A stretch of DNA of 64,000 nt from Gekko japonicus (taxonomy: Eukaryota): contig NW_015173675.1 of NCBI RefSeq assembly GCF_001447785.1, forward strand, positions 704,643 to 768,642. Reading direction: 5' to 3'. The position numbers and the translations under genes were made by a program. Shown piece after piece: positions 17,064-55,157 of the stretch (its first letter is position 1; each line of letters opens with the position of its first letter). The notes beneath the pieces are model-generated. The model was not told the origin of the DNA and ran no database searches. It saw only the letters and a list, made by a program, of their open reading frames with translations.

Positions 17064-17241
17064 GTTTTGAATGTGTTTTCTGTAACTTTGTCTGCAAAAC
17101 AAAAAACATGTTTGAGCGCCATTTGCAAATCCACCTGATCACACGGATGTTTGAATGTGATGTGTGCCACAAGTTCATGAAGACTCCTGAGCAATTACTG
17201 GAGCACAAGAAATGCCACACTGTCCCCACTGGTGGGCTCAA
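17064..17241 (+). CDS. ZNF827: ZNF827 coding exon (GFECVFCNFVCKTKNMFERHLQIHLITRMFECDVCHKFMKTPEQLLEHKKCHTVPTGGL)
   Basis: Follows a 98-bp intron; tttgcag acceptor, AA|GTAAGG donor; two C2H2 fingers. Confidence 0.96.
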
Positions 17242-19316
17242 GTAAGGAAAGCAAGTACACAAATTTTTACTGTGTTCAGTACCTCAAATATTGCGGGCGC
17301 AGAAACAGAGAAGTAAACCTGGAGGGGATTCATTTTGGTTGAAGAGTCAAAGTCTAGGATGTTTGGTCTGAAGAGTGTTTTTAACTTTCATTGGCTGCCT
17401 AAACTCTAGTCCCCCCTGGCAGAGTAATCACTGTACTGAACGGTGGTTGACACAAATGCAGACAGCTTTAGTTTGCAGATGAATATGTCTCCACTAGGGC
17501 CTCTGCAGCTAAAGCAGCTCTTTACAGTCAGGCAGTTTTTACTCCTTCTACGTAGATCTTTAAAACAATTATCTGTATCATGATTAAAAATGAAAATTGG
17601 GAGTTGGATCTCACACTCATTGCAGATCTTTCCCACATTCCCCTCCTTCCAGCACTTCTTACCGGCCCTGGGAAAGTTTATTTCCGGAATTGAGGACCCA
17701 CCTGGACTAATAGCTACACAGGTCAGGAGGCTGCAGTGGGGCGGGGGAAGGGAGTGAGGTGGAAGAAACCGAAAAAGTGATTTTGTACCCTTGCATCTGC
17801 AGATTGTGGGATCCAACCCAATAAATTGCAAAAATTAACAATTTTGCCTGGAAACTCGTATGCATTCAAATGAACACATGAAACTCGTGTATGTGGAAGC
17901 TGTTCCCATCAATACAGTGAAAGGGCAGTTTGGCACCCGAAGTGATGCATGTATGGTTCTACCTTTGAAATGAACAGTTCTTATGGGTATGGGAGCTCTG
18001 TTTAAGCTCTGGAGCTCCCTCGTATGTAGGAGATCACTGGATCAAAGTATATCTTTTTTGCACATTCTTCATATCCAGATTCCATACCTCAGAAATTAAG
18101 AGCAATTGCTGCAACCCTGTTGCTGTTACCTTTTTGTTGGCTTGGTTTGCTAAAGCCCCACTAAATCAGTTGGTTGGTGGCACTCAGAAAGAAGATGATT
18201 GCTGAAGCATAATTCTTCGTAAAGTTACCTATCCCTGCTTCTATTTTGACTCTTCTTCCTTGTGTTAAATTTTGAAGGGCATGAAGCTTGGGCCTCCTTC
18301 AGAACCGTGCACTTGATGCTTGGTTTCAAAAGGGTGCATCTTGCGATTAATTGACTCCAACGCTTTTGGCATAGTGCCAAGACATGCTGATTATTTAGGG
18401 GAGGTTTTGCTTCTTACTGAGAGCTGAAACAAGATTAAATTGTGAGATCCATCTTTGGATTTTAAACCTTGGAAACTAGTTCTCACTAGGGTTTCCAGGT
18501 GTCCTGCTATGGGGGGAGACCTCCTGCTGGCAATCCCACTCTTACCCACTGCCACCCTGGTGGCTGGTGGGAGAGAAATACATTTAAAAATGGCCATCGG
18601 TGCGATGGTCTTGCGTCAGTTCAGGGGGGAACCCAGAATTGATGTCACTCTATTATTAAGAATCACCAGAAACTCTTTTGGAGGTTTTCCCTGAAAGTGA
18701 CATAATTTGGTTTGTGCTGATGCCCCCCCCCCCCAAGACTACCGCCGGCTGATGGCAATGCTATTTCTCACTTTATTTATAAAACATCTGCATCACCTTT
18801 CAACTTAAAATGCTCAACACAACCTTACATGTATGAGTGACATGTTTTAAGAGACAGGCAGATTGGAATTGCTGATACCCCATAGTGGCATCTTCCTGAC
18901 AAAGCTCAACCCTTACCAGGTTCGGTTATGGAAAACAAAGTGTTGCATATGGTTATTTGTCTCTGATTGAACTTATTGTCCCTGTCACATCATGCAGCCA
19001 TCAAATTCCATAGAACCTGGATAAGTGTCGAGATTGGAATTGACATTCGCATTGCAGATCACCCTTGCTTTGGATCAAGGTTGTCTGTGGGAGAGGCAAA
19101 AGAGCCCATAATGTTTCACTTCAAAGAATTTGGTATTCAGTCCTTTTATGTTTTAAACAGCCTTAAACTAAGTTTGTGTCTCTGTACTAAACGAAGCACA
19201 CCACATTCTTACAGCGAGAATGTTCACATATCTTGATTGTCTGAAATGAAATTAGTGAAACAGAACATGGTAGTTTACCTAGAATCAACTGTCGACATTT
19301 CTTTGGTTTTTGATAG

Positions 19317-20124
19317 GTGCCCATTCTGTATTTACTCCACAAACCGTCCAGCAGCAATGGAATGCCATTTGAAGACCCACTATAAAATGGAGTACAAGTG
19401 CCGGATCTGCCAGGCAGTGAAAGCCAATCAGCTGGAGCTGGAAATGCACATCCGGGAGCATCGCCTTGGCAACCATTACAAATGTGACCAGTGTGGCTAT
19501 CTTTCAAAGACAGCCAACAAGCTGATAGAGCACGTGCGTGTACACACTGGGGAGCGCCCTTTTCACTGTGACCAGTGCAGCTACAGCTGCAAACGCAAAG
19601 ACAATCTCAACCTGCACAAGAAGCTCAAGCATGCTCCGCGCCAGACTTTCAGCTGCGAAGAGTGCCTCTTCAAGACCACCCACCCATTTGTCTTCAGCCG
19701 CCACGTGAAGAAACACCAAAATGGGGACTACTCCGAAGAGGAGAAGAAGGGCCAGGGGGCCAGCTCCAAGGAAGCGAGTCCTCTTCTTGCTGCCAACAGT
19801 TCCCGAAGCCTCTTATCGCCTCTCTCAGTGATGTCAGCTTCCCAGGCTCTGCAGACAGTGGCCATGTCGGCTGCTCACGGCGGAGGGGCCGAGTCAAATG
19901 TGGCACTTAAGGCCTTGGCCGTCAATGGCACTTCCCTGTGTTTTGACAAGTATCGAAACTCTGAGTTTGCCCACCTCATTCCCTTAACCATGTTTTTCCC
20001 CAAGAACCACTTTGATACCACATTCCATCCACCCAGGCCACAGACTGTATGTCTGGGTGACTGTTCGCCGAAGCACTCCTTCCTTGCCTACCTAGGACTA
20101 ACTGAAAGGGCAGAAACTGTCTGA
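19317..20124 (+). CDS. ZNF827: ZNF827 terminal coding exon (long isoform): five C2H2 fingers and a C-terminal tail ending ...ERAETV*
   Basis: ttggtttttgatag acceptor. Phase 2 join gives AA|G TGC CCA TTC = KCPF. Fingers CPFC, CRIC, CDQC (TGERPF linker), CDQC, CEEC; TGA at 20122-20124. Confidence 0.92.
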
Positions 20125-26334: not shown

Positions 26335-26561
26335 TTATAGCTGAGAGGACACTGAATCACTTTCTTCAGACTCACAGCTCCTGCAATGGAAAGGAAAGAC
26401 AGTACAGCTTGGCTTATGCCTTGAATAATATCCATATCGGTGTTCAGCAGAACTCAAACCATGGCAGATGCAGCAAATTTTGACAAGCCCTTTACCAGTA
26501 TCTGGAACAGCCTTCGCACAAATCCTAAATATTCTTCTTTGATTCCTTTTTCTCTTGCCCT
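26335..26561 (-). CDS. Candidate terminal exon of the C4orf51 ortholog (...PDTGKGLVKIC...CRSCESEESDSVSSQL*)
   Basis: Pyrimidine-rich acceptor ttcatttcatttccttactttcaag and an open frame to TAA. GKGLVK and the Ser/acidic tail weakly resemble the recalled human C-terminus (GKGVLK...CSSEDSE). AATAAA on - at 26164-26169. Confidence 0.4.
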
Positions 26562-27375: not shown

Positions 27376-28027
27376 AATTTCATTTTAAAATAACAGTAAA
27401 ATCCTTAGATACAGACTAATCCTTTAATCCCTAATTTAAAACAGTGCCAAATAAAAAGCTCGCTCATTCCCTCCTTATACTGACAGCTGGTGGGTGCTTG
27501 CACCTCCCCCACTTTTGAAATGTGCCTTGAATGGGTATCTTTTAAGTATAGCCATGTGGAGGTCTGTGGGAGGGCATTCTAGAGACAACACTGGTCATGG
27601 GAGCTTCCAACAAAGTTTGGGATATACATGACACAACAAAAGAGGTTCTCCTGCCCAGAAGGCATTGTGCAACTGGACAGTGCACAAGGATCAGCACTAA
27701 AACAGTCCTTAATAGGCGTGTAAGACCTAAGATGCCCAAGTACCCTAGCCCAGCTGCCTGTAACACAAAGACGGCACTGGTCAAGGAGGGAATTCTGCAT
27801 GTGCAAATCATAGCAAAAGAGTTCAAAATTACCCCATCACACTAGAGCCACTGAATGCAGCTATTGCAATGGTGGGGATGAGACAAGAACCCAGGAAACA
27901 AAGTGGCATGGGTGCAGGGACCCAGTGGGAAAAGGGCGTGGGCAGATCAGTATGAAAGAAAGGGTCTTTGCTAGGAGAAAGTCTCATACTGAAAGCTATT
28001 TTCAGTGCAGAGCTTGATCGGAATAAC

Positions 28028-28074
28028 CTGGTTGTCAGGCGATGTCGTTTTCGTCTTCTCCGCCATTTGGTTCC
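28028..28074 (-). CDS. Candidate 47-nt internal exon of the C4orf51 ortholog
   Basis: Very strong polypyrimidine acceptor (ttcttttccttgtctttcactttcatcccag) and CAG|GTTATT donor; frame undetermined. Confidence 0.25.
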
Positions 28075-28300
28075 CTGGGATGAAAGTGAAAGACAAGGAA
28101 AAGAAGTTGAAAGTCATTCAGAAACTTGGAAATTTTGTGCTGCAAAAGTGAAGAAAGGAATCTCAATGGAGGGAATGTCTCAGTATCCAGTTGAAAAATG
28201 GCAGAACTCAGCTCACCGTATTCACACGCGTGCTTTTTCCAGTGCTGAATTGCATCAAGGGGTGTTAACGGTGATGCAATACTGACTGTATTATGATTAA

Positions 28301-28833
28301 CAAGAAAGAAGACCCACGAAACTCTTGGGGGGGCGGGGGAGCTCCAAGATCAGCAGGCGGAGGAGGAACCAGCAGGAGCAGGTAAGCTCTCCCCCCCATC
28401 CCACCGGTTCCTCTGTCTCCTCCACTACCACCCCTGCTCGATCGCCCCCACCCACCTCCTCCCCCAGCTGTGAACTGAGGCCCGAGCAGCTTGCAGCCGC
28501 CGGGCCTCGTCGGTCCCTTCCCCCAGCTGCAAAGCGAGGCCCGCGCGGCTTGTAGCCACTGGGCTTCGCCGCCTCCCCCCCGCTGCAAAGCGAGGCCCGC
28601 GCAGCTTGTAGCCGCCCAGGTGCAGAGCATTCCCTGCGCATGCGCAAAGGACGCTCTGTCACTTTTGGGGGGATTTAAGAACCCCCCAATATTTTTTTAA
28701 ACTTTTCGGATTTTTGTGCACACCTGGGGACTGCCCCAAGTGGGTACGAAAATCTCCCTCCCCCCCAGGTGCCCCCGATGCGCGGATTTAGGTATCCGCA
28801 CGCACGGGGGCTCCTTCGCTATTAGTATATAGA
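28301..28833 (-). mobile_element. Non-autonomous Helitron, GC-rich, with internal tandem repeats
   Basis: On -: A|TCTATATACTAATAG start, degenerate hairpin CCCAAGA-GTT-TCGTGGG, CTTG|T end; repeated GCTGCAAAGCGAGGCCCGCG units. Confidence 0.7.
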
Positions 28834-31348
28834 TCTATCATAAAAGAAGACAAGTTAAATATGGTACAGTGTATTGCTTACAAATAACACATTTTGGAAT
28901 ATAGCTGGAGAAACTGGCTGTAACCTTTTAACATGTCATGAATTGTGTTCTGACCTGTATTGAGCAAGATAACCAGCCACACATTCCTCCATGGGTTAAC
29001 TTCCAGATGTTAATTTCCCCGAAAGAGAGACCTCACAGCTCAGCTTTGGACCTATAAGGTCCACCACCAAATCCCTGTGGTGACGTGACAAGCTGCAGTT
29101 AGTCCATGCTGAGGTAAATATATTCTACCCACACAGAGAGATAATATTTTGTTACTTCACACAGTCTAGGAATGTGGCCTGGCTCAACATAAGCCCTAAA
29201 AATCTCACTTTCTCAAACGAACTACAAAACCAAATAACTTGGATTCAAAAGGCTATGAATACTGAACGCAAATAGGAGCCATTGTTTCTCTCCTCTGCTT
29301 CCTCTTTGCAAGTAATAAACAATAATTATTCTCCTGGCAGAAACACCCTCTCTGTTATCAGAGCTTAATTTGAGACAAGGCTCACTAGAACATACTCCTA
29401 GAATGTGTTTTGTCTGCCAGGGTTCACGTGCCTTGCATGGATACATACTGCTAAAGGACGTTTTCCTGCTCCATCATTCCAGACACAGCTTGATAGTGGG
29501 GCTTGTAGAAAGAATCCTCCCCCCACCCCAAAGGACAATGGGAGCAACTTTATTTTTGCACTAACAGTAGTGCTAGTCCCAATCAGGCAACAGCTATTTC
29601 ATCACTATACAATGTAACTGGAACAGAGGGAATAAGCTTTGCATTAGGAAGGAGAGCCCATTTATTTCTTTAAAGGGTATTTGTGCATGCATTCACATGT
29701 GCACTAAGTGCTGGAAACAGAAAATGCCCAGTCTACATTTTTTTTTAAAAGAAGAGATCTTGAAATGGCAAAGTATTTATGGCCCTGGCACTATTTTTAG
29801 AATTTAAGAAAATACAATGAAATTAAAAGGGCTCCAAAAGTTCTTATGGGACAAGGTAGAAGGGCTCATCTTTATCAAGCAAATAAATGGAGAAGGGCAA
29901 ATAACTGTATTGTCAGCAGTGGTATAGGCAGTATCCAGTTGGTATGTGCAGTCACTGAAGAATAGTTCTGGTGGCACACTTGGGAGGGGATTGCACATGT
30001 CAACAAAATCCCTAAGGCACTGTGGACATGTGGGGAAAAACTGGGTTTGCCAGTGATGGAAGGGCAACGGAACAAAAATACTTCCACATGTCAAAAATGT
30101 ATCTACAAATCCTTAAAAGACAAATCACAATTTCCTTAAGGTTAGTGCCCAACCATATTAGATTTACATACCCTCCATCTTTAAACTGTGTATCGAGGTC
30201 ATTTCCACAACTACGGCTATAGAAAGTAGAATATCTGTGAGCTGAACACAATAACAATTGCACAGATCCCTGCATTACTTTGGAAACATCCCAGGCTGTA
30301 GATTTACTCATATTCATTACCCCATGAAGGAAAGTAAAAACTACATGAACATTAAATGGAAATTGGAATGGTATGTGCTTCACTGTTGACAAGCCAACCC
30401 CAGTCTTTGAAGACAGTGCAGGGGCCTTGTCTGAAAGCCCTCCTGAGTCCCTTATCTAAATACCCAAATTTGCAGATGGCAAGAAGAAACACACCTTGGC
30501 TCTTCTGCTGCACTAAATATGCCACGTTCTTGTATCTCTTCACTTTGGTTTGTTTTTTCTTTGTTTTTTAAATTGCCTAGTGGCCACAGTCAGCTAACCA
30601 TTTTTCAAGGTAATCCTGCTGGAGTCGACAGGATTATTCTGGAACACACGGCTGGCAGATTGCAGGCTCAGTCTTGCTGCTCTGGTCTATGCAATTTCCA
30701 CTAGCTTATCTGCTTCAAAATTAGTTGTCCTCAAGTGAGCACACTTTCCAGCACAAAGCCAAACCAGTGCTGAAAAGAATGCAACACTGACTACGTTTGC
30801 CTCTTCCGTCATTACAAGTCTTCATTTGGCAAGAGATTAAAATGTTCTCCTATAAATATAAGGTCTACAGACCTGAAAGAACTGGGGCAGCACTACTAGA
30901 CAGGCAAAAACGAACATAGCAAACCCTTGACAGCCTCATCTCCTAAAGAAAAGGAGCTCCTTGAGGACTGTCTGGAAGAGAAGCAGCAGAGGGAGGGGAC
31001 TTAACCTTCACCTACAGCTTCCCACCTGCCAGGCCCTTTCCTTTCACAGGATCCCGGATGCACATTTTCCCTCAAAAATGTTTTTGGATCCTTCTGGAAG
31101 GAATGTTTTCGGTGGAAAAGCAGTGAAGTGGGGAAAGGCCAACAGTGCCGTCCTAAGCATAGTGACACCATTCAAGCCCATTGGCTTCAATAGACTTCGA
31201 AGGGTATAAATTCTGGTTAGTGTAGCTCTCCAAGTACCTTTCATTAACCTCCTTTGCTCCAAATCACCCTCTGTTTCATCCAGTCTTCCCAAGAGGAGCT
31301 AACCAGTAAAAAACCCTACACATTTGAAGTAACACATAATACTACCTG

Positions 31349-33183: not shown

Positions 33184-35567
33184 TATATAGCTATACATAG
33201 CTACCCATCTTGATATGATACTTCCTTCAGTCACAGAACAAACCTGAACCATGGAGCTGAGATTCCCCTAAACCATTTGGAAAATTTCCGGAAGCTTCTA
33301 AGTAACCTGGAAATGCATAATAACTAGGATGAAGGCTGGTGGGTGGAGGAGAGAGAACAAAAAAGGCAAAGAAGCTTTTCCCCAGGACCTACACTCAATC
33401 CAAGTCTTTACAAACCACCACAAGGCTTGACACGATTGATTATCATTCATAAGTGAAACATGCATTTAATTAGGTAAGAGGCAAGTAAGATGAATAGGAA
33501 ATTAATCTCAATTATTTCTTAATTCACTTCTCCAGCCACCTGCCCAAGTCTACCTCATTGTTTGGAAAACCAGCAAGGGCCAGCCGAACAGACACAAAAA
33601 CAAAATCTCTGTTACATGTCCTGTGCTCTGGGTTCTTTCAGAGGTTAAGAGTTTGACATTCAGAAAAGAGCACACGTGTCTCGATCCAACAAGTCTGCAC
33701 TGACAATCCGGGTGGGGTGGGGTGGGGGGTAAGACTTGGGAGTGGGGGGATCTCGTGCCTACTCAGCCTAGGTATTTGTCAATAAATAGATACTGCCAAA
33801 TATGCCGTCACCATAAGTTGGCTGCGACTTGACAGCACTTTACATACATTCCAAATATGTCACAGGTCTCCAGTATTTTGTCCTTGTAAGAATCGTGATC
33901 CTGTCCAGTTGTACTTTCCCCTAATATCTGCATAGATGCTCATATGCCAAGTGCATACGCAAATACCCAGAGCAGCTTGCACCACAGCAGGTGCTCCTGT
34001 AATGTTTAGTCACTTACATGATGTTGCACTTGTGCAGTACTTTGCACTAGGTTGTAGTTCTGTGGGTCAAACTAGGTATAGCCCCTAGAAGCTCATGTCT
34101 AGGGTTTAACAGGGTTAAAAGCAGCTGGAGAGGGAGCAGTTGAGATCGCCAGCTCTGTTCCCTGCTTTGAGCTCCTTTGATAAAGGGCAGGATATGGGTG
34201 TGCCCAACAGATGGTCCGTGTAGGCCCAGGCAAGCTCTTGGATTTCATAATACACTTCCTTCCCCATAAAGTACTCATTAAAGCTTAAATACCTACATGT
34301 AAAATAATGGTTTAACCTACTTCGGTTATTGTCTAAGGCCCAGATAAGGTGACTTCCCTTTGCCTTATTATTCCCATTCTACGGTCGAGGACCACTGAGA
34401 GTCAGGGCTGCAGAGAGAGAGCCCCTCCTCCCCTGCTATCAGTAGATACTTTAGTCAAGTGTATTTAATTCCACGGAATAGCAAACATAATACATGTATT
34501 AGCTATTTAGTATTTAATGATGAGAAATTCATGAATAGCTATGAATGCTGATTCACTGGATAGGCTTACTATGACCCACCGTTCTGAAGGTCAAAGGTCA
34601 GACAGTGTGACTTAGTTTGTCAGTAACCTTAGGCTATATAAACCAAACATCAGGGGGCCTTGCCCTGTGGGGCTCTGGGGCACTTTATCCCGCCCTTTGG
34701 GAGCCCCTGCTGAGAGTCATCTACATGCTTATGACCATTCATTGAGTCACCATGCTGAAACTAGGATCCATAAGAGTCCATCTTATTATGTGTCCGATTG
34801 CAGTGACTTTCAGGATTACTTTGAAATTAAAATATAATTCCACTTTAAATCCACAGCTTTCCCTTGGCATAGCTTTTCTGCATTGCTGTGGCAGTGCTCA
34901 CTAATGCTTGTGGCGTGCTTTAAGGAAATTATAATAAAACTTGTTCCATCGAGATTCGGGTCCTCCACTTTTCAAAAAGGAAGGACTAAAGCAGCTGAGG
35001 GGAGGTGTGGTCATTTGGATTAGGGCCACAGTATTGGAGGAAGAGCTGTGTTAACCCCTTTCTCTTGTGCTGTTTCTCAAGCGCAGACCTCCCACAGCAG
35101 CTCCATGGGGGGAAGAAACATACAGGTATGTCCCCCCGCCCACAAGACTAATAGTGGATGGGTTACATGAGGCCAGGAGATGACATAATGCTCCCCCTCC
35201 AGTGCGGAGTAGAGAAGACGGCATGGGGTATGAAGCAGAAAGAGTGGAGCTCACATCTCTGTTCAGCCATGAAGCTCACTTAGGTGGCCTTGAGCTTCCT
35301 TTGACATGTTGCTGTGGGGATAAAATGGAACAAACGTGTCTGCCACACCCTGATCTCCTTACAAGGAGAAAGGGCAGGATGTAAATGTGGTAGATACGGA
35401 CAGTTATGTGAACACTGCTGTTCTTTTTAACAATCTTTTCTCTTGCACGGGGGTTTGGCTGGACTTGGAAAGAGCATTGCTCTACAGTACCATCTAGAGG
35501 TACCATGTGAGCACTGCACCTCAGACCCATCCCTTCGCTGCTATCAGCTGTTACTCGGTGTACTTAC

Positions 35568-35654: not shown

Positions 35655-37751
35655 CTATTTTAAGGTCATGATTGCTACACAACCACATCACTTGCTTCAG
35701 AAAGTTTTTTGCCTAGTTATTCTGTTTTTATCCCACAGTCCTTCAAGCAGCTCAGGGCACCACATTCAGTTTTCCCTTCCACATCTTAGTTTTACAACAA
35801 CACTGTGAGGTAGGTTAGTCTGAGAGAAAATGACTGCTCCAAGTTCCCCCCTCCACAAGCTTCATGGCAAAATGAGGATTTGAACCCAGGTCTCTCTGGT
35901 CTTAAATCGATATTCTAACCACTGTACCACACTAAACTCTACAAGGTTATGTTAGCTTGTTTTTACCAGGGTCAGCTACCACAGTTTGTTTTGCATTGCC
36001 ATAGTGTCCAGGTATATAGTGAAGCTGGTTTACCAAAAACACTCGGGGGGGGGGGGGAGAAAAAGAAAAGGAGAGACTGAGATCTTACTAAAAAGAAATG
36101 GAGGAGATATTAACTCTACACAGACATTATGTATAATGTTATGGCTATTTTACAGGCTAAAGACAAATCTTTCTTCAGTTTTAATCATACAATAAGCAGA
36201 TATCAAGGAAAAATTTACCTCTTTCTCTGAGTACTCCTAAACTCATCAAACAGGACTAAGGGCCTGCTTCACAACAAACTCTACAATGGCTGTGCCCCAG
36301 TGATAGAGGAATTATGTCAGAAGCTAAAAACACTGATTATTATCTGGTTATCTGATTTGTTTGAAAAAGGTTTATAGCAGTAAACACTCACCACAAAATA
36401 GATTGGACTATGTGCTCCCTGTAGAATTGCCAGATCAACATTTGCAAAAATAAGGACCCGCTACATCAAAGCACGGTTCTCAGAAGAGCTGGAGCAACAG
36501 AGGAGGGGACAGCAATGATGTAAGAAGTAGCTGTCTGTCTCCTACTCCCCAAATGATGTCCAGTGACCAACAATAAAACTTTCTTCAAATACATTAGAAG
36601 CAGGAGACCAGCCAGGGAGGCAGTGGGGCCCATGGATGACCAAGGGGTAAAAGGAGTACTGAAGGATGATAGGGAAATGGCTGAGAAGCTGAATGCATTT
36701 TTGCCTCTGTCTTCACTGTGGAAGATGAAAGGTGCTTGCCCACTCCAGAACCGCTGATTTCGGGAGGGGTGTTGAAAGACCTGAGTCAGATTGAGGTGAT
36801 GAGAGAGGAGGTCTTATGACTGATAGACAACTTAAAAACTGATAAATCACCAGGCCCGGGTGGCATACATCCAAAAGTTCTGAAAGAACTCAAATGTGAA
36901 CTTGTGGATCTCCTGACAAAAATATGTAACCTTTCATTAAAATCTGCCTCCATTCCTGAGGACTGGAACGTAGCTAATGTCACTCCCATCTTTAAAAACG
37001 GTTCCAGAGGAGATCCGGGAAATTACAGACCAGTCAGTCTGACATCAATACCGGGTAAGTTGGTGGAAACTTATTAAGGAAAGAATTAGTAGGCACATTG
37101 ATGAACAAAAACTATTGAGGCAGACTCAGCATGGGTTCTGTAAGGGAAGATTTTGTCTCACTAACCTGTTAGTGTTTTCTGAGGGAGTGAACAAACATGT
37201 GGACAAGGGGGAGCCAATGGATGTTGTTTACCTTGACTTCCAGAAAGCTTTTGATAAAGTTCCTCATCAAAGGCTCCTAAGTAAGCTCAATAGTCATGGG
37301 ATGAAAGGATCTCTTGTGGGTCAAAAGCTGGCTAGTTAATAGGAAACAGAGAGTGAGTGTAAATAGGCAACTTTTACAGTGGAGGGTGGTAAGCAGTGGG
37401 GTACTGCAGGTATCAGTACTTGGTCCGATGCTTTTTAACTTGTTCATTAATGATTTGGAGTTGGGAGTAAGCAGTGGAGTGACTAAATTTGCAGATGACA
37501 CAAAATTGTTCAGGGTGATGAAAACCAGGGAGGCACTCCAAAGAGATCTGTTGAGGATGGGTGAGTGGCTGTCAGCATGGCAAATGGGGTTTAATGTGGC
37601 CAACTGCAAAGTGATGCACACTGGGGCCAAAAATCCTAACTATAAATACACATTGATGGGATCCAAACTGGCAGACACTGACCAAGAGAGAGATCTTGGA
37701 GTCATAGTAGATAACTCACTGAAAATCTCAAGACAGTGTGCAACTGCAATA

Positions 37752-38055
37752 AAGAAGAAGAAGAAGAAGAGAAGAAGAGATTGGATTTATACCCTGCCTT
37801 TCAGTACCCAAAGGTGTCTCAGAGCGACTTACAAACTCCTTTCCCTTCCTCTCCCCACAACAGACACCCTGTGAGGTAGATGGGGCTGAGAGAGCTCTTG
37901 ACAGAAACCGCTCTNNNNNNNNNNNNTCTTTTTCAAAAACAGCTCTTATCAGAACTATGGCTTGCCCAAGGTCATCCAACCAGGTGCAAGTGGAAGAGTG
38001 GGGAATCAAACCCGGTTCTCCCAGATTAGTCTGTGCATTTAACCACTACACCAAA
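37752..38055 (-). mobile_element. Squam3-like SINE inserted in the CR1 (contains an assembly gap at 37915-37926)
   Basis: (GAA)n tail and a body nearly identical to the copy at 51710-51985; it splits CR1 GCAATAAA|AAGGCCAATG. Confidence 0.88.
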
Positions 38056-38610
38056 AAGGCCAATGCTATGGTGGGGGTTATTAGGAAGGGAATTGAAAAC
38101 AAATCAGCCAGTATCATAATGCCCCTGTATAAACTGATGGTGTGACTTCGTTTGGAATACTGTGTACAATTCTGGTCACCACACCTCAAAAAGGATAGTA
38201 TAGCATTGGAAAAAGTGCAGAAAATGGCAACTAGAATGATAAAAGGGTTGGAACACTTTCCCTATGAAGAAAGGTTAAAGCACTTGAGGCTCTTAAGCTT
38301 GGAGAAATGATGACTGAGGGGTGACATAATCAAGGTTTATAAGATTATGCATGGGATAGCGCAGGTAGAGAAAGAAATACTGTTCTTCCTTTCTCACAAT
38401 ACAAGAACTCATGGGCATTCAATGAAATTGCTGAGCAGTTGGGTTAGAATGGATAAAAGGAAGTATTTCTTCACCCAAAGAGTGATTAACACATGGAATT
38501 CACTGCCACAGGAGGTGGTGGCAGCTACAAGCATGGGCGGCTTCAAGAGGGAATTGGATAAACATATGGAACAGAGGTCCATCATTATTATTAGCCACAA
38601 TGTATAGATA

Positions 38611-38747
38611 CCCTGTTTCCCCGAAAATAAGACCTACCCAAAAAATAAGCCCTAGTAGGATTTCTATGCATTTGTGGTATAAGCCCTAGTGTGTCTTCTT
38701 CAGAAAAAATAAACATAAGACGGTGTCTTATTTTGGGGGAAACACGG
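38611..38747. mobile_element. Tc1/mariner (Tigger/pogo-like) MITE, 137 bp, inside the CR1 3' tail
   Basis: 23-bp terminal inverted repeats (TIRs) CCCTGTTTCCCCGAAAATAAGAC / GTCTTATTTTGGGGGAAACACGG; TA duplicated at 38609-38610 and 38748-38749. Confidence 0.92.
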
Positions 38748-41387
38748 TAGGAACTCTCAGTCTGGGGCAAGTGATGCTCTGTATTCTTGGTGCTTGGGGG
38801 GAGGCTACAGTGGGAGGGCTTCTAGTGTCCTGGCCCCACTGGTAGATATCCTGATGGCACCTGGTATTTTTGGCCACTGTGTGACAGTGTTGGACTGGAT
38901 GGGCCATTGGCCTGATCCAACATTAGCTTCTCTTATGTTCTTACACGTGACAGGCAAACATCAAGGGAAATTTCCATGTCAGTGCAACCAGCCACCCAGA
39001 ATGTGCCTGGCCACTATGGGAACTTTCCATATGATCCTATTAATCAAGCATTTCCAGAACAGCATGAGGCCCAGCCGCATAAGGAAACTGCTCCAATACT
39101 ACACTAGTTCCATATGAATCAGGCCTCAGTCTCCCTGCACATTCAGTTGCTGGACTTGACAAGGCCAAGATGCAGAAGAGACTTTGATGCAAGGACTTGT
39201 AGAAGGGGGTGGCAGAATCCAAGGCTGCCTGTTGAAGTTGCGCTTTGGCTTCTTAGGGGCGACTCCTCTGCCTTCTGATCAAGTCATTCACCAAATACTG
39301 GCAGCTGTTTTTCATCATAGACCCAAACTGGGATAAACAATGAGATCATTTTCTCCTCTCTGACAGCATTCAAAAAAACAACCCCAAACCCACACATGGG
39401 GAATTAGCTGTATTCTTAACTAAGCAGAAGGGATATCAAAGCGCAGGGAGGCCCTTGTTCTGACCACCCAGAATTTTTCCAAGAGCTCTTGAGACTTGTT
39501 TAATAAAATAAAAAATTATTTTAAAAAATACTTGTCTCGCTACTGGTCAGGTTTTTAAATATTTTTTTTATTATAAGTGTAAGATGCACCTCAAGCATTT
39601 CTATCGTTAAGTAGGTAAGATACACACAATTTTCTAAAGATCTTCTCTACTGTATACTTGCATGAAGTTATATCATATGCATTATTGTAACTCTTTAAAT
39701 ACTTAGAGATTTTTGCAATCCACCTGAATTTATAACAACAGGTTTGCAGAACAAGCAATTATGAGTAACAAGTTCCTTAATGCCTAACATTTTCAGAACA
39801 CACTATGGATTTTAGGGTACCACCAAGGGTCAGCAAATTCTAAATCATTTTGTTTACTGTTATATATTTCCCAGTGGAGAGGGCACAATATGGATTGTCT
39901 GCAAAGGAACATTCAAAAGTGGAATCCAGTCCATTCTATCACCTCATTCTCTGGCATATGAAAACTAAGCCACAGAATTGATTTCTGTACTTCTTAGAGA
40001 TCTAGAGAAGTCAGAGGTTTGTTGGGTGACCGTGGGCCAGTCACTTTCAGCCTAACCTACCATAAACAGAGGAGAGAATTATATAGGCTGCTTTGGGTCC
40101 CATTGGGTAGAAAGGTGGCGTATAAATGATGTAGTTTTGTCCACCTTAGTGCCTAATAAAGGGGAGAGGAAGAGGATGAGACTAAAAACTGGGGTTGAAA
40201 ATAACAATGCTGCCCTTTTAATTTTTTTTTTAAACTTAATTTAGCTTGAGACTTATACCGGTATCTACACAAACCATTTTATTATTCTTTTTGCAATTTT
40301 AAGAGTCCTGGTCAGGAAATGAAATGGTAGAGAAATAGGAAAAGGAACATTCATCCATTTTGAGATTCTTACGCCATCATGAAGTACCTGACCGTCAATA
40401 CATTCTCTTATCATGTGCCAAAGCACTGCCTCGCCATTTCCTAGGCAATCATTAACTATTCTTGTGCCCCCTCCAGCATGCTTGAGTGTTCGTTTTCACT
40501 GAGCGAAGGGGGGGAACTGCAAGAGATTAAGGCCCTTGTTTCTTTTGCAAGGAGTTTTGCATCTGAAAACATGGAAGTTGGTATGTCTCAGTATCCAGTT
40601 GATTCATGCATTACCACTCTCTCCAAACTCCTAACATTTCGATTGTGCCGTCAAAGTGCCGTTCTCCCTGTTTCTGAAATGGACATGCGTCATACAGAAG
40701 CTTTAATTAGAATCTAATTTCACAAGATACAGAAACAATGGTGAGATAATACTTTTAATAGCCAATATTCACTGGTGAAAAAGAATGCATGCTTTTAAAG
40801 CATAACTTCATATTAACCCATAACGTACAGTAAAATAAAACCATGTCTATTGCTGAGCCAAGTAATGTTCAACATGTAGGATGCAGCCTTTCCAAGTTAC
40901 ACAGAACTCTATAGGCAATAGCTGGTCAGAAAAAAACAAAGAAGGGAAAACTAAAGGAAAAGAAAGAGACTGAAAGATCTAGGCTGATGCTATCCTAGTG
41001 GAATTAAGAGTTCCTCAATACAAAGGGGTGGGTTGGTTTGAATTTGGAGATAAATTAGAGTCCCATGAAACAAGAAAGGGAGAACATATTTAATGAACTA
41101 ACAGATCTCTTCATCAAGAGAAAATTCTGAGAACTTTGAACACTTTCATTCCTTTGTGAGCAAAAAAATCCACTCAGGATAATTAATGTCCTAGTACTTT
41201 ACTAATATAAATGCTCTTCTTTATTCTTTTTCCCCCCAAGCTTGAAATCACAAACATCCCCCTCCTCAAATTTATTCTAGTTAGTCCATCTCAGTCACAC
41301 AAATGGCAGATAATTTTGTGAAGTGATGTACTTTGCAGTCTTTGCTACCTACCAGCCATACTCAGTTTTGAACCCACACTTTACATG

Positions 41388-42123: not shown

Positions 42124-42366
42124 TGTGGTGGATGAGGGCTTGTGTACCCTGGTGGGAGAGGAGGGGGCCAAACGGCTACAGGTGGCGGCATCCAGTCCCT
42201 TATTTCCACAAGCTCCACCATAAGTTGAGGCACAGCCCTTGTCTGTCTGCGTGTGCCGTTTCTAGGCCTCCCCAGCAAAGCTTTTAATCTCTTCAGAGGC
42301 TTCAGGAGAAAGAGGGCTGAAGGGCAAATGCACCCCAGGAGCCAAGAACAGATACTTGGCCATCAT
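42124..42366 (-). pseudogene. C4orf51: C4orf51 ortholog, first coding exon, with in-frame TAG at codon 34 (counted from the second ATG)
   Basis: Translates MMAKYLFLAPGVHLPFSPLSPEASEEIKSFAGEA*KRHTQTDKGCASTYGGACGNKGLDAATCSRLAPSSPTRVHKP. This aligns without gaps to human C4orf51 as recalled ([40 protein letters not shown]...TTYTGSYRKKQLDKSMCS). Position and strand between MMAA and ZNF827 are syntenic; GTGAGC donor follows 42124. Confidence 0.8.
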
Positions 42367-42504
42367 GAGGACGCAAACTATAAAGATACAATTTACATAA
42401 GCCTGCTGATTGTTTCTTTTGGGTTGCTGCTGCCGTTGTCAACAACTTGTCTGCTGAACTTCTGCAGAGAGGAAGGAAAAGGGAAAGGCCTTGCTCTGCA
42501 TCAG

Positions 42505-42519
42505 TGTTGCTAAGCAACA
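42505..42519. promoter_or_regulatory. RFX X-box (TGTTGCTAAGCAACA) about 140 bp upstream of the C4orf51 ATG
   Basis: Palindrome with 7-bp arms matching the GTTGCYN(0-3)GCAAC consensus typical of cilia and spermatid gene promoters. Confidence 0.6.
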
Positions 42520-46346: not shown

Positions 46347-46634
46347 TTAGGCTCTCCCTTGAAAAGCTTTCAGCAATAGGTCTGCAGCCAGCCCTGGGGA
46401 CAGGAGCCCGCTGACGACCTTCTCCTCCAGAAGCGGAATCTGATCTCTCACTGCCGAGTGACTCCGGAAATGGTCCAGCATATTTTCTTGGATTACATTC
46501 CACATCCACACTTTTTGCTGTCTCCGCCGTTTGGTGATCAGTTCACCACCTGCAAGCATAAGGTCTCGGAATTCTGTCATCTTATCCCACATGTCGGAGA
46601 TGCCTTCTCCAGTCCTGGCAGAGATCCGCATGAC
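46347..46634 (-). CDS. MMAA: MMAA terminal coding exon ([12 protein letters not shown]...LLKAFQGRA*)
   Basis: aatag acceptor, 288 nt to TAA. Exon sum 439+123+171+86+150+288 = 1257 nt = 418 aa, an intact methylmalonyl-CoA mutase G-protein chaperone. Confidence 0.97.
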
Positions 46635-46781
46635 CTATTAGATTCAGAACAGACTTCTTAAGAGATACAAGACAAAAATTAAGCTATTAGGCTGAAATGA
46701 TTTGACCATAAGCATCTCTGAAGAAACCATAGATAGCTCAGCTATTAAGCTGAGATATTCAAAGATACTAGAGATACTTTT

Positions 46782-46991
46782 GGGGAGGGGCTGTGGTTCA
46801 GTGATACAGCATACACTTTTCATGCTGAGTGTCCTAGGTTCGGTCCCTGGCATCTCCAGCTAAAAGGATCGAGTACTAGGTGATGTGAAAAGACGTCTTC
46901 TTAAGATACTGGAGAGCCACTGCCAGTCAGAGGAGACAATACTGACCGTGACAGACCCATGTTCTGACTCAGCCTAAGGCAGCTTCATGTG
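46782..46991 (+). mobile_element. tRNA-derived SINE of a second family; further copies at 44890-45066 (+) and 52345-52575 (-)
   Basis: GGGGAGGGGCTGTGGTTCAGTG A-box, GGTTCGGTCCC B-box, ends AGGCAGCTTCATGTG. Confidence 0.8.
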
Positions 46992-47129
46992 ACTATAGAG
47001 ACTCTGACACCACAAATGCTAAGTATCTGGGAAAGGCTCCCCAATAAAGGGCATGCCTTATCGGTCCACCCTCCCCATATACTGGAGCCATTTTTAAAAA
47101 ATTATGTGGGGCTGTGTTTAAAGATGGCT

Positions 47130-47760
47130 TGGAAACTTTAATTAAGTCAGGATTCAGCTGTTACAAGAGTCTGGGACTGTGAAATGGAATGAATGAAGAC
47201 CAACAAACTAAAGTTCAACCCAAACAACCCCTAAGTACTACTGGTTGTCAACAAAAAGACTGAGGAGTGGATGGTGTAGCACTCGCCCTAGAAGAGCAGG
47301 TTTTCTGCTTGGGGATGCTATTAGACTGGTACCTACTAATGAAGGTTCAGGTCTCCACCATGGCTTGCAGTATATCTTTATTCAATTTCAGTTGGCATGC
47401 CAGATACAGACCTTGAGAGGCACAATCTGGCCGCCTATTGATCACATCCAGTCAGATTACTGCAATGTGTTCTGTGTAGGGCTGCCTTTGAAAACTGCTA
47501 GAAGCTTCAATAGATACCGAACACAGCAGCAAGAATACTGGCTAGTGCAAGCTGCAGGGAATCTCTCTCCCCAGTTTTTAAAAGGGCTACACTGTCTACT
47601 AATTCATTTTCAGACACAAAGTGCTGGTTCATTAATAACCGTCAGAGCCCTGAACAGGCTGGGACCAGGGTACTCAAAGGACTGCCAGCACCTATGTGCC
47701 TGACCAGCAGATGAGCTCTTTACTTTGGTCTCACCACTGCAGTCTGTTTGATTTGAGAAT
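47130..47760 (+). mobile_element. Degenerate L2 LINE fragment
   Basis: DYCN..GLPLK-like remnant and LHCLLIHF (L2 LHWLP-like); boundaries approximate. Confidence 0.7.
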
Positions 47761-48104
47761 TTTAGGTGAGTAAACTTTTTCATCCCATTTTAAAATGTTC
47801 AAGTACATTTACTGGTTTTTGTTTTCTTTTATTGAAAGACAGTATACAAATACTATATATGAATAAAATTAGATTTTAACAATTGTGCTTTCAAACTGGT
47901 GCATGTCAACTTTATGTCCAGCTTATAACTTTTAAAGAGGCTTATAGTTAAGATTCCGGTAATTTAAGATTTTCCAAATGCATACACTTAAAGAATTATG
48001 TATATCACCATCACATGATAATGTGGAAAGCACTATTAGAAGAGACCTGGAGAACCATGTGGGTTCTGAAGTATTAAAATCAATACCCTTTCACCTAAAT
48101 CTTA

Positions 48105-48329
<225 letters not shown>

Positions 48330-48755
48330 TCAGGAACATTATTGTAATCAATAATTATCTCCTTAAGCAGACCCAGAGCGATGCTGAAATCAGGCAGGAA
48401 GACTTTTTGCTGCCTTTTTTCTTCACCTTAGAAATTACATTGCCAAATCGTTGCTGAGGTGTAGTTCACTATCTTTTAAAAGGAAATCTTAGTTCCTTGG
48501 ACCACTGTGTTGAGAAGGCCTATATGAAACCTTCAGGCATACATAGGAACAGCTGGCATCTTATCCGACTGCTGCAAGATTAAGAGCCCCGTGATGAAGG
48601 CATCTTAGCAAACAGCTTTTAAGGAAGAGCCAGATTTGAGTCCAGCAGCACCTTAAGAGACGAACAAGATTTTCAGGGTATGAGCTTTCAAGCACCAAAT
48701 GTTTCCCCACATAGGGAACTTTGACTTTTAAAAACTTATACACTAGAAATCTCTC

Positions 48756-50870
48756 TGTGTTAAGTGCCATAAAGTCACTTACAACTTATGGCGACCCTAT
48801 GAATTAATGTTCTCCAAAACGTCCTATTCTTAGCTGCCATTCTCAGATCTTGCAAACTGAGGCCGTGGCTTCTTTTATTGAGTCAATCCCTCTCATGTTG
48901 GGTCTTCCTTTGTTCCCGCTGTCTTCAACGTTTCCTAGCATTGATGTCTTTTCCAGTGTTATTTTCTCATAATGTGACCAAAGTATAACCTCAGTTAAGC
49001 CATTTTAGATTCTAGGGAGAGTTCAGGCTTGATTTGATCTAGAATCCACTTTTTTGTCTTTTCGGCAGTACATGGTATCTCTAAAATTCTCCTCCAACAC
49101 CACATTTTAACGGAATCTACTTTCTCCCTGCCAGCTTTCTCCACTGTCCAACTTTCACATCCATACTTAGTCATGGGGAATACTATATGGTATGAATTAA
49201 CTTGACCTTGGTTGCCAGCAACACATCCTTACATTTAAGGATCTTTTCTAGCTCCTTCATGGCTGCCCTCCTCAGTTTCAATTTCCATCTGACCTCTTGG
49301 GTGACCTCTCCCTTTTGGTCAATGACGGAGCCAAGAAACAGAAAATCCTGAACAACTTCAATTTCTCATCACCAACCTTAAAAGTGTAATTCCCCAGTAG
49401 TCATTACTTTTGTCTTCTTGATGTTCAGCCTATAATCCTCCTTTGGCAGTTTCCGTAGTCGTTTCAAGTCTTCACGGTTTTCTGCCAAGAATGTTGTGTC
49501 ATCTGCAATATCTCAAATTGTTAATGTTCTTTCCACCAATCGTCACTTCACCTTCAACTAAATCTAATCCACCTTTCCTTATGATGCGATGTGTTTTGCA
49601 TACAGATTGAAGAGACAGGGCAATAAAATTAATTGTGGTCTAACACCTTTGCCAATTAGAAGCCATTCTGTTTCCCCCTATTCTGTCCTAACAGTGGCCC
49701 CTATGGACGAGTATAGATTGTGCATCAAAACAATAAAATGCTGTGGCACACCCATTTCCTTTAAAGCCAACCATAGCTTTTCATGATCCACACAGTCAAA
49801 AGCTTTGCTGTACATGAAATACTTGCTGATTTTCTTCTGAAATTATCTCATATGTGTTAATTTGCAATATGATCTCTAGTGCCTTTTTCTTTTCTGAATC
49901 CAGCTTGAACATCTGACATTTCTCACTCCATATATGGTAACAGTCTTTGTTGTAAGATTTTGAGCATCACTTTACTTGAATGAGAATTTAATGCAATGGT
50001 GTGACAACTGCTGCAGTCTTTGACATCTCCTTTTTTTGGAATTGGGATATAAATTGAGCATTTCCAGTCTGTTGGCCATTGTTTTGTCTTCCATATTTGT
50101 TAGCACAATCTTGTTAAGATTTTTATGGACTCAGTTTCTGTAGCTTCGAATAATTCTATTGATATCCCATCTAATCTTGGTGACTTGTTTCTTCCGATTG
50201 CTCTTAGTGCAGCTGTCACGTCACTGTCTAGAACTGTAGATTCTTCTTCAAAAGATGCTTCTTGAAAGGAATCTGTCATCCTTTCATCTCTTTTGTTCAG
50301 TTCTTCAGTGTATTGTTCTCATCTTTTCTTTATTTTGTCCTGTTCAGTTAATATATTTCCATGTTGATCTTTCAGCATACCTATGATTTAAATTTCCCTT
50401 TGATTTCTTGGATCTTGTGGAACAGTTATCCTGTTCTTCCTTTTATGTTGTTCTTTTCTATTTTTTACAATGGTCATTATAAAAGTTCTTTGTCTCTATG
50501 TGTTGAGTCACTTTGTGCTCAGCTCTTCCCTAGTAGCTGACTGAGAGCTATCCAACCTGGAGGTTCCATCTTCCAGCATTGTATCTTTTTTCATTTTGTA
50601 TTGTCTCATCATAGGGTTTTTGAGATAAGAGTTGTTCAGAAGTGGTTTACCATTGCCTTCTTCTGTGCTGTACTAACCAGAGTTAGCTCTAGCATCCACT
50701 GCCATTGTCTATGAAAGGTACTCCAGCAGTGTCACCTTCTGCTACTTCTGTTGCCCAGTAGCTACCCTTCGAGGATTCCTCTGCCCCCATCACCACTGGA
50801 ACTGTCCATTCTCTTCTATTGATCTGTGCTGTTGATCCCCAAAGGGGGTGGATGCATCTTACGCCATTTC
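48756..50870 (-). mobile_element. RTE-clade (BovB-like) LINE, internally deleted, in an MMAA intron
   Basis: On -: YSKAFDCVDHEKLWLALKEMGVPQH (about 49738-49812) and NNLRY/ADDT with a frameshift (~49500); RTE-type 3' end. Confidence 0.88.
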
Positions 50871-51532
50871 CGCACTGTCATTTTTGTCACTTGTTTGTTC
50901 CTATTGCTTCAGAGTTTTTTCTTCAATGTGTTTTGCTTTCTCTAGTAGTCACAGAGGGAGCAAAACACATGTTGGGGGGGGGCAAAGCAACAGGAAAAAA
51001 CGAAAGTGACAGTGCAGAAGTGGCCTTCGTCTGGCATCTTAGCTTTAAGTGATATTCCACCTTGAGTAACTCTGCTAGAACTTTAGACCCCTTAGGTATT
51101 GGTCTTAGCTTCGCTGACACACACAAACCCCCTCACCGCATTAAGGTGTGCATCGAAGCGGGGCTACTGGACTCAGATCTACTACAGACCAACATGGCAA
51201 ACCTCTGAAACTAAGGAAGAGCCACGGTCATCTTTTTCAAATTTGGACTTAGTCAAATCCTGGATGCAGATGCAGATAAAAATAGCTCAACAACATAGCA
51301 GTCAGTGTCTCTGAGCCACAAATGCAATAAATGCTGTAGCGGACACTGTATACTAAAAATCTATGTTAAAAGTCATTGTTAAAAGTCAAAATGGGCAATA
51401 AATTCTACTGTATTATGGTAGCTTAGGGAAGACATAACAAGACAAACAGCAGTACAACCCACCCTCTTGGAAACAGTAAATACTGTCAAAATTAACACCA
51501 TATTTTGTTGCGAGGAGAAAGCTGAATATTTA

Positions 51533-51700
<168 letters not shown>

Positions 51701-51709
51701 TCACTTTGG

Positions 51710-51985
51710 AAAGAAGAAGGAGGAGGAGGAGGAGATTGGATTTATACCCCGCCCTTCACTACCCAAAGGAGTCTCAGAGTGGCTTACAAACTCCCCACAA
51801 CAGACTCCCTGTGAGGTAGGTGGGGCTGAGAGAGCTCTGACAGAAACTGCTCTTTTTCAAGAACAGCTCTTATCAGAACTATGGCTTGCCCAAGGCCATC
51901 CAGCAGGTGCAAATGGAGGAGTGGGGAATCAAACCCGATTCTCCCAGATTAGAGTCTGCGCATTTAACCACTACACCAAACTGGC
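51710..51985 (-). mobile_element. Squam3-like SINE ~40 bp from an MMAA splice acceptor
   Basis: (GGA/GAA)n tail; CCACTACACCAAACTGGC head in reverse. Confidence 0.88.
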
Positions 51986-52696
51986 AACATCATAAGGCCA
52001 TATTTTTTTAAGAACAGGCTACTGTAAGAAGGGCTTAGTGTGTGGGGATGACTGAAGAAAATGTTGATGCAGAGTAAAAAACAAAAAGGCAAACAAGATG
52101 AATCCAAAAAGCTCCACCAGAACAAGGAACCCAAGAAAGTCACTGCACATTAACATAGCCCAGTTTTATAGCCTTCCGTATGCTTGGGCTGAACAGTTAT
52201 GGAGCCACCAAGAAAAATACCCAAGTGGCAAACAACTTATACCTAAAGCAGGCAAGACACCCTCTCTTCCTGCATCCTCCCTTCAGAAACACTAATACAA
52301 AATTAGTTGCATTGTATTGTGTCTAAGGGGCACTACATTACCTACATGAACACATGTGAAGCTGCATTGTAATGAATCAGACCCTTGGTCCATCAAAGTC
52401 AGTACTGTCTACTCAAAACCAGCAGCAGCTCTTCAAGATCTTAAGCAGAGGCCTTTCAGATGACCTCCTAAAGGATCTTGGGTTTTTTTGTTTGTTTGTT
52501 CATTTGTTTTCAAAGACAGGGATGACATATTTTCTCTGGCAACGTTTGAGCAAAGGGTAGCACTGACTCAGCCACACATGAGACTCGGGATCTCTTTCTT
52601 TTCTAAGCCTCAGCAAGCCAGAGGATGATGCAGAGCTACTCAGCTATGCCATAAGAGACCACAATGTGGTCAGCATACACCCAAGGAAGGCTTTCA

Positions 52697-52897
<201 letters not shown>

Positions 52898-53800
52898 TTA
52901 CAACATATATAGCAAACTTTGTCCCAAGATTCAAGTCAATGCAGGCTTATTCAGCTAAACGGAGAACCAGATAGTAAACAAAACTTACTGCATGCATCTC
53001 AAGCATTTTCATTGCAAACAAGAATATTTAGGAAACCCAGAGTGCTTTAACTATGTAAAGACAAGGTGGCTACCCATATGGGACGAAAGCACATGCCGTT
53101 AAAGTCTTGGCAATTCCATATCCCCCCAGAAGTGAAAACAGTGCAGCTATCTCAGCTGATCATAAAAGTTCATGAAATCAGACACATATACCTAAGTATA
53201 CTATAACTATGAAACCCCATATTTTGGAAACACACCAAAATCCAAAGGTGAGCACCATTTAGAAATTGTTTCTATTTGGAGGTGGGCCAGGTAGGCAAAA
53301 TTTAAGCAGATTAGTTGGCAAATTTAGTATTTGATACTTCAGTGAATATAGCTGGTGTTGGTTACCACTCTCAAAGTGTTCGGTATGGGCTATCCCAGTG
53401 GGACTCACTCGGTGGCTTGCAGAGAACTGCATTCCCAATGGCCATCAACCAAAAGTGCCACATTTACTTCCATCACTGGCATGAGGCCTGCACCTCAAGT
53501 TGACCTGCAGCTTACCTGTTGCTCTAGCGGTACACGTTTCAAGGTGGGAACCAGATGCCAACCACAAGCCCCACTGTGGAGGGCCTTGCCCACATTCCTG
53601 AAACACTGAGCAGATACCACATTAGGGAATTGTGGCCTGAAGCACCACAGGTGGCATGTCGAAGAGCTACATGTGGCTCCTGAGCCACTGAGTGACTATC
53701 ACTGGGCTATACCATGCATAAATAAATTTAATCAAAATAACTACATTGATTTCCCTAAACAAGTAGAAGAGATGATTAATGTTTTCACAGACATACTCAC

Positions 53801-53923
53801 CACCACTTGTACTAGAGGAAGGGTCCACTGCCAGCACAGATACTTTGTGCCCTCTTTCTGTAAGCATTTTCCCAAAGCATTCAATAAAAGTTGATTTCCC
53901 AGCACCAGGGGGGCCGGATAATC
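53801..53923 (-). CDS. MMAA: MMAA exon with Walker A/P-loop [12 protein letters not shown] and AVDPSS motif
   Basis: cctag acceptor, G|GTGAGT donor, 123 nt. Confidence 0.97.
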
Positions 53924-54718
53924 CTAGGTATCAATAGAAACATCTGTGAGTCCAGGGCAATGTGTAATCCCATTAGAATTGCAGTACAATGCAACCAGCA
54001 TGCTATGCAAAACTGCCAGGTAAGCATCTCTTGCATGAACACAGTGTCTTCATAATTTAAAGCTGAGAAAAAAGAAGCTCTGAACTAAACCAAATTAATG
54101 TATAGCTATCAATATTCTTCCGTCCCCTTGTCTTAGTTGTGTAACCACTGCCCTTTTCTCCCAAAGTTACAAAATTCATAATCTTGAGTCTTTTCTTAAA
54201 TGCATTTTTTTTCTTTCCCCCAGTGCATGCATGCAGGTACACATGACTTGTGTTGCCTAACAAATCACACATTTAACCATCTTCTCTAAAAGGATTACTT
54301 TTCCTAAATCAGATCAAATTTGACTTCTGTTTTTCCCCCTTCCCCATTACCAGATCATATTATATGTAAACAAGTTTTATGCAAATTAATTACATCATTT
54401 ACTGGATTTTTGTATGAGCATATTAAAGAACACACAGAGGATATTTAGAGAAGAGCTCATGGGAAGGATTTGAGTGGCACTTAAAATTAACCAGATACTA
54501 GGGAAGGTTTTCTTTTGAGTAGGCAGGTTTCATGGGGGAAACTGCTCCTACATAGCAATACAGAAATACAACTCTACTGAGAGGTACAACAACCCATCAT
54601 AATGGGTTACAACTCCTTTGTAAGTTTCAGGAGTTAAATAAAAACATTTTGTTAAAGCTGTGGCGAATCAAATTGCATTAGATCATAGAAACAATTGTGC
54701 AAACAAAAAAGGACTGAC

Positions 54719-55157
54719 CCACTCTAAAGGCTAGTGGCTTTCCTTTATTTAACTGTTCTTGTTCTCTGTGGTAGGATAGTACCTTCTGAAGGAGCACCTG
54801 CGCAATCTCCTTTTTCCTGCTGTGGGTGGATTCTACGAGAGTAATGGCTTCGGCCAAGCAGGCCCTCTGGCCACGGACAAGTCCATTGTACAGTTTATCT
54901 AAAATTCTTTGTTCCTTAGCAGAGAGTTCCTGCATTTGCTTTTCTGCTGTTGCTGGACAACACCAGCCAGTCTTCAAGCCCTTTGAAGATACCATCATTC
55001 GCCTTACAAAATGGGGCTGTAGCAAATCAGCCTGTTGGCCATATGGAAAAGCAGATCCTGGAAGGAACCTCAAACAAAAGCTATTCAAAGAACTTTTCCT
55101 AATAGTCTTTAAAAAACGGTAAGGAGGAAATTGTAGCAGCAATGATGATGCATTCAT
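54719..55157 (-). CDS. MMAA: MMAA first coding exon (mitochondrial targeting region to LAFRVG); the exon probably begins at the acceptor at 55193
   Basis: ATG at 55157. RACLAEAITLVEST motif of the MMAA/MeaB/ArgK family; G|GTCAGT donor; 439 coding nt. Confidence 0.96.

Follow-up and report, generated by a model that had tools for sequence, protein, structure and literature searches.

A C4orf51 gene with five disabling lesions, probably a lineage-specific pseudogene, in a Gekko japonicus-like gecko

The stretch of DNA analysed here (64,000 nucleotides; called the window below) very likely carries a decayed, unprocessed pseudogene, which is the sole syntenic C4orf51 of a Gekko japonicus-like gecko and was inactivated after the split from Paroedura. 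Set against the Paroedura picta protein, the gene shows a total of five disabling lesions, of four kinds, across 14 kb.

The gene comes into view through a minus-strand reading frame of 81 codons (42366-42124), which a sequence-only reading of this DNA had described as an unlisted frame that is interrupted by TAG and then stays open to a GTGAGC donor. Our re-translation agrees: the single stop is the TAG at 42262-42264, after which the frame is open again as far as the GTGAGC donor at 42123. C4orf51 coding exon 1 spans 42124-42363; residues are numbered from the methionine at 42363, directly upstream of which lies an additional in-frame ATG (42366). Translated with X at the stop, the exon matches the Pfam family DUF4722 (PF15849) with E=2.9e-11 and 43.8 bits, against a gathering cut-off of 27, and the halves flanking the TAG match successive DUF4722 segments (profile 1-31, E=1.5e-4; profile 42-67, E=0.075). 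The best homolog is a P. picta protein named 'C4orf51 homolog' (88% identity, E=3e-36), and the nearest proteins further include named C4orf51 homologs in Rhineura and Liasis and a hypothetical protein of Phrynocephalus, also of the DUF4722 family. The sequence-only reading had named the gene C4orf51 and would have given this up had the peptide no significant C4orf51 hit; the Pfam match and the P. picta protein bear its assignment out. Judged by Pfam score, best matches and synteny, the locus is C4orf51/DUF4722.

The TAG (lesion 1) stands in place of an invariant tryptophan, W34, as the sequence-only reading had placed it. This residue is W in 12 of 12 squamate orthologs, in all 26 named vertebrate sequences and in 13/13 fish and invertebrate sequences (a set partly overlapping the vertebrate one), and its codon lies outside any homopolymer. 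Translation from the conserved start yields a 33-amino-acid product, with the TAG 138 nt ahead of the first exon junction. Besides the stop at W34, the exon differs from its orthologs at two conserved sites, F23S and Y52C; the latter (42208-42210, minus strand) removes the aromatic anchor of a motif, [TS][TS]x4[YF], to which we return below. Further upstream, a one-codon open reading frame (ATG then stop; 42393-42398, minus strand) precedes the first in-frame ATG by 32 nt.

The neighbours fit this assignment. MMAA (46347-55157, minus strand), used as a marker of synteny and of species and as a control of sequence quality, has six intact coding exons with canonical splice sites and no disabling lesions; a comparison with the independent P. 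picta protein (92.8% overall) likewise shows every one of them open. Its first coding exon matches a named Gekko japonicus protein at 100% identity, compared with 84-88% in other geckos, so that the window comes from this gecko or from a species very close to it. On the other side of the locus lies the 3' part of a plus-strand gene with C2H2 zinc fingers (8052-20124), which we take to be ZNF827, the name that the sequence-only reading also gave it. In mammals, C4orf51 has MMAA on one side and ZNF827 on the other and shares the strand of MMAA. The order given in that reading is recovered here, as MMAA(-)/C4orf51(-)/ZNF827(+), through the MMAA match and a plus-strand gene with C2H2 fingers, presumably ZNF827.

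A tblastn search with a reptile C4orf51 protein, which the sequence-only reading had proposed, was run with that of P. picta and placed the six coding exons, collinear with the protein, between 42363 and 26335 of the minus strand. The observed exon lengths are 240/77/63/85+533/85/46 nt, against 239/77/65/85/85/46 expected from the 198-amino-acid P. picta protein. Intron phases were derived by combining the splice sites present in the window with the alignment of the proteins rather than taken from ortholog DNA, so that the codon counts are the independent part of this comparison, and lesions 3 and 4 rest on phases obtained in this way. The window resembles the intact P. picta gene in its six-exon layout (by protein mapping), in identity (155 of 188 compared residues, 82.4%), in its last residues and stop position, and in its neighbours; it differs by the five lesions and by F23S and Y52C.

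Lesion 2 is an extra base (+1 nt) after K75 (42135-42138, minus strand), which puts a conserved HP motif out of frame. Orthologs read (K/R)-P-H-P here, with H77 and P78 present in 12/12 squamates, and past the lesion the HP text resumes one frame over. The extra base sits within a short C run; the sequence-only reading had suspected one C too many at this place, and its speculation proves real. Lesion 3 is the acceptor of exon 2, which reads CG instead of AG (36044-36045, minus strand) given the inferred phase of intron 1. It directly follows 13 consecutive C and is, of the five, the most open to sequencing error; an AG two bases beyond is out of frame. The other phases of intron 1 (0 or 1) were considered and rejected, as each needs at least two lesions at that junction too. 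Coding exon 2 itself (35967-36043, minus strand; tblastn E=3.8e-13) has the expected length and an intact GT donor. Lesion 4 concerns coding exon 3 (33244-33306, minus strand), which with its best donor is two bases short at the 3' end, and no phase-0 GT donor precedes the next stop. Intron 1 holds reverse-transcriptase-like fragments (about 36466-38607), presumably CR1-type, broken by a short repeat and lying around the window's only N gap (37915-37926); beside them, at about 38610-38750, is an element of about 140 bp with inverted ends that looks by eye like a miniature DNA transposon.

The three remaining exons, all on the minus strand, contain no internal stop or frameshift. Exon 4 (28217-28834), of the expected length without its insert, is preceded upstream of 28834 by an intact branch-point-like site, pyrimidine tract and TAG acceptor; exon 5 (27990-28074) has the expected length and canonical AG/GT sites; exon 6 (26335-26380) includes a TAA stop in its expected 46 nt, and AATAAA occurs beyond it at 26169 and 26001. 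Spliced without alteration, the frame meets stops at codons 34, 84, 102, 108, 118 and 172.

Lesion 5 is a GC-rich, non-coding insert of 533 bp (28301-28833, minus strand). It separates A from T in the first codon (Ile) of that exon, and its excision in silico restores a clean acceptor and an exon 4 of expected length. The insert has 62% GC, against 42% in its flanks, and a CpG observed/expected ratio of 0.67, against 0.27 for the whole window. It opens with TC and then a stretch rich in TA, sits at A^T, shows neither target duplication nor terminal inverted repeats, and carries a weak 3' subterminal hairpin (6/7 pairs, one mismatch; -3.3 kcal/mol for the last 45 nt). PMC8605555 and PMC12001565 give a 5' TC, a 3' subterminal hairpin, A/T flanks and a CTRR end as hallmarks of Helitron1, and the latter source records Helitrons in lacertid and cordylid lizards. 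The insert is like a non-autonomous Helitron1 in its 5' TC and TA-rich start, 3' hairpin, A/T flanks, length of a few hundred bp, and lack of target duplication and terminal inverted repeats. It is unlike one in the hairpin mismatch (1 in 7), in being single-copy (no further copies were found within the 64-kb window) and in its 3' end, which is CTTG and not CTRR; because of this end we term it Helitron-like and not a member of the Helitrons. The case is one of a Helitron-like element that landed in a coding exon of a squamate. Close to the 3' end of the insert (28301-28322), an AG with its own pyrimidine tract and branch-like CTGAT stands just before the final 20 nt; the phase of this internal acceptor would make up for the shortfall of two bases in exon 3 (33244-33250), probably by chance.

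The sequence-only reading had left three options, a unitary pseudogene, a segregating null allele and an assembly error. The first is favoured by the five other exons, not located in that reading, which hold three more lesions of varied kinds, the 533-bp insertion among them; the last is very improbable, and we read the locus as a pseudogene rather than an assembly error. It is probably fixed in the species. The rates of change count against this reading: 10 amino-acid changes are derived in the window and 7 in Paroedura (p=0.63, no clear excess), and the comparison of C4orf51 with MMAA changes (8 vs 15) gives a Fisher p of 0.20. Maximum-likelihood branch lengths (nine squamates, fixed topology) for the window and Paroedura are 0.120 and 0.080 in C4orf51 and 0.026 and 0.053 in MMAA. 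The C4orf51/MMAA divergence ratio of the window-Paroedura pair, 2.5, is the lowest among 6 pairs; with this ratio and no clear rate excess, relaxation is not established by the rates, which places the loss as recent relative to the Gekko-Paroedura split. It must be recent on that scale, yet old enough for five lesions to have gathered.

The strongest competitor, though improbable, is that the dead copy is not fixed, so that a working allele exists on other haplotypes or a working paralog elsewhere. Such a situation would agree with amino-acid rates that are not significantly raised and with the nature of the lesion evidence, which comes from one assembled haploid sequence. A C4orf51 protein of Gekko japonicus was absent from the results of two word searches in a database that does contain MMAA of this species; this absence is weak evidence for loss because a word search misses true homologs, turtles being absent there and found by profile search. 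Against an unfixed copy, five lesions gathered in cis over 14 kb imply that the copy has long persisted free of selection, the ancestral place, with MMAA on one side and the zinc-finger gene on the other, is occupied by the broken copy, and no paralog of human C4orf51 is known according to PMC7436996.

A second competitor is a new, N-terminally truncated protein. We enumerated 6000 start and splice combinations (5 ATGs, nearby acceptors and donors, exon skipping), of which 34 are open; none begins at 42366 or 42363, and all start at out-of-frame ATGs, 42221 or 42191, which regain the frame through the +1 frameshift, and all lack residues 1-76. Ten of these paths keep every exon (156-176 amino acids), and exons 4-6 are free of internal stops and frameshifts. 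They combine a cryptic acceptor for exon 2 with the acceptor inside the insert, where a pyrimidine-rich tract and CTGAT do precede an AG, offsetting the short exon 3. These paths, however, take as exon 2 acceptor an AG at 36076, the third in a cluster that precedes the real pyrimidine tract, translation would have to pass the upstream ATGs, 34 open paths of 6000 are unremarkable for chance, and without residues 1-76 the product would lack the entire part that matches DUF4722. We regard both the truncated protein and the splicing route that it uses as very improbable.

Still less probable is that the lesions are errors of assembly or base calling in an intact gene. The N gap in intron 1, the short C run at lesion 2 and the 13-C run beside lesion 3 would be congenial to such errors; W34, in contrast, is outside a homopolymer, MMAA is free of such defects, and base calling does not produce a 533-bp insert whose ends look like those of an element and which sits precisely at A^T; lesion 3 alone could be such an error. 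Were the lesions random errors, the chance of all 5 falling in C4orf51 rather than in MMAA, a target twice as large, would be 0.004 (0.011 for the four small ones). Read-through or recoding of the TAG with production of the protein, which the open frame between the TAG and the end of exon 1 would permit, is hardly credible, given the frameshift, the missing acceptor and the further stops downstream, and given that MMAA ends at a normal stop and so gives no hint of a changed code.

In the decayed pseudogene that we favour, one lesion would have come first, and the others would have accumulated once selection was gone. The TAG at W34 need not be the first inactivating lesion. Beyond it the frameshift, lost acceptor, short exon and transposon-like insert follow, and the conserved N-terminal module is retained in none of the splice paths tested. 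Stops well upstream of a junction trigger nonsense-mediated decay, and C4orf51 transcripts of this kind would be expected to meet that fate. The locus is like unitary pseudogenes of testis-related genes in being an unprocessed, syntenic relic with many lesions and retained introns. STK33 in neognath birds is reportedly a unitary pseudogene of a testis-related gene, and a human set of unitary pseudogenes is also said to have been described; unlike the STK33 case, a different gene in a different lineage is involved here, and C4orf51 is a candidate unitary pseudogene. A search of the open-access literature, judged by title, found no report of C4orf51 loss in geckos or reptiles.

The family to which the gene belongs is old. 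A profile search found 77 proteins at E<=0.001, of which 3 are squamate proteins already named, 30 were looked up (26 with names) and 44 were not looked up. Those looked up come from turtles, marsupials, echidna, amphibians, coelacanth, sharks, rays, bichir, gar and paddlefish among vertebrates, and from tunicates, amphioxus, sea urchin, molluscs and an annelid among invertebrates; none of the 30 is from a bird or a crocodilian. Loss of DUF4722 beyond Gekko (Euleptes, Eublepharis, birds, crocodilians) is only a lead, since the searches miss true homologs. A wider loss in geckos, considered because MMAA and no C4orf51 was found in Euleptes and Eublepharis, was rejected, as the same search had missed the turtles. 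The members share a core made of a helix ending at W34, a TTY motif and an SPTR-x-x-x-PHP-x-x-F-L motif. Fish and invertebrate homologs are about 240-330 amino acids long, and their C-terminal half, which closes with an HPEW-type motif, is conserved; this half is partly retained in turtles and missing in squamates and marsupials. On these sequence comparisons, the family is shortened in amniotes.

What the lost protein did can be approached through its expression and its motif. Human and mouse C4orf51 are specific to the male reproductive tract and testis-specific, with spermatids highest among the columns shown, and the gene belongs to the Tdark class, had no mouse model in 2020 and is counted among possible male-contraceptive targets (PMC7436996). 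The syntax [TS][TS]x4[YF], given in section 8 of PMC10973386 for the Mn unit of microtubule inner proteins, is matched by the TTY motif of 27 among 34 named homologs, where shuffled segments give 2.6; since the homologs are related, this is one conserved site and not 27 trials. Six of the 7 misses have H at the anchor and one has V at position 2. In the window the unit is lost through Y52C. Look-alikes of the gecko and sea-urchin proteins in the ESM Atlas are mostly Mn-type inner proteins (C1orf100, TEX37, CFAP68, CFAP107, C3orf84, SMRP1), with scores to families other than DUF4722 all <0.9, which makes them leads only. Thus described, C4orf51 is like the Mn-unit inner proteins C1orf100/SPMIP3, TEX37/SPMIP9, C3orf84, CFAP68 and CFAP107 (PMC10973386, Table 1) in being a short testis protein with a conserved [TS][TS]x4[YF], and families of such proteins are its nearest Atlas look-alikes. 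It is unlike them in having a single unit, in showing no significant sequence match to them or to PDB chains (three profile searches of the PDB gave no relatives, with best E values of 1.1, 0.92 and 0.46) and in being unlisted in the text and 3 supplements of PMC10973386. The AlphaFold model of the P. picta protein has a pLDDT of 54, with residues 20-43 as its sole confident helix; the Mn site is not helical in this low-confidence model (pLDDT about 55 there).

We give nearly an even chance to the reading that the product was a putative sperm-tail microtubule inner protein, a small spermatid protein that would sit on the inner wall of doublet microtubules via its Mn-type motif. Under the same reading, its loss may have been tolerated because such inner proteins would be partly redundant. 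A study of Spmip8 reportedly suggests, by its title, that fertility can survive the loss of one sperm inner protein. The broader proposition is tentative and slightly less probable than the first: that DUF4722/C4orf51 belongs, so far unrecognised, to the Mn-type inner proteins of sperm-tail or motile-cilium doublets, from molluscs and annelids to mammals, and that G. japonicus is a fertile natural knockout. If this were so, the sperm axoneme of G. japonicus could be compared directly with that of P. picta, a natural comparison for locating the C4orf51 protein in the sperm tail, and a vertebrate without C4orf51 would suggest that fertility does not require the gene, at least within its own lineage. 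The gecko resembles a natural knockout of a testis gene that is old and little understood. Fast-evolving testis genes are known to be lost in single lineages, and no new kind of biology is involved.

Upstream of the gene, about 145 nt from the start codon, lies a near-palindromic RFX X-box-like site (42506-42518), a possible promoter element. It fits the restricted consensus of PMC2375033, a source that also states that a single X-box is not predictive. A match occurs in 27/2000 shuffles of the upstream 500 nt, with a pattern that was shaped after the site had been seen, and such sites are not enriched window-wide; significance is reached in the local test alone. The mouse ortholog, 1700011L22Rik, has no row in four Rfx2-knockout supplements of PMC4498915. 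A second X-box-like palindrome (49211-49222), inside an MMAA intron, is within chance expectation.

On the zinc-finger side, a minus-strand frame of the window (17011-17095) closely matches the C-terminal tail of Pogona C4orf51 isoform X1. This frame lies on the strand opposite a splice acceptor and an exon of the zinc-finger gene; in Pogona, the C4orf51 transcript may run antisense into that gene, or the gene model may be an annotation artefact.
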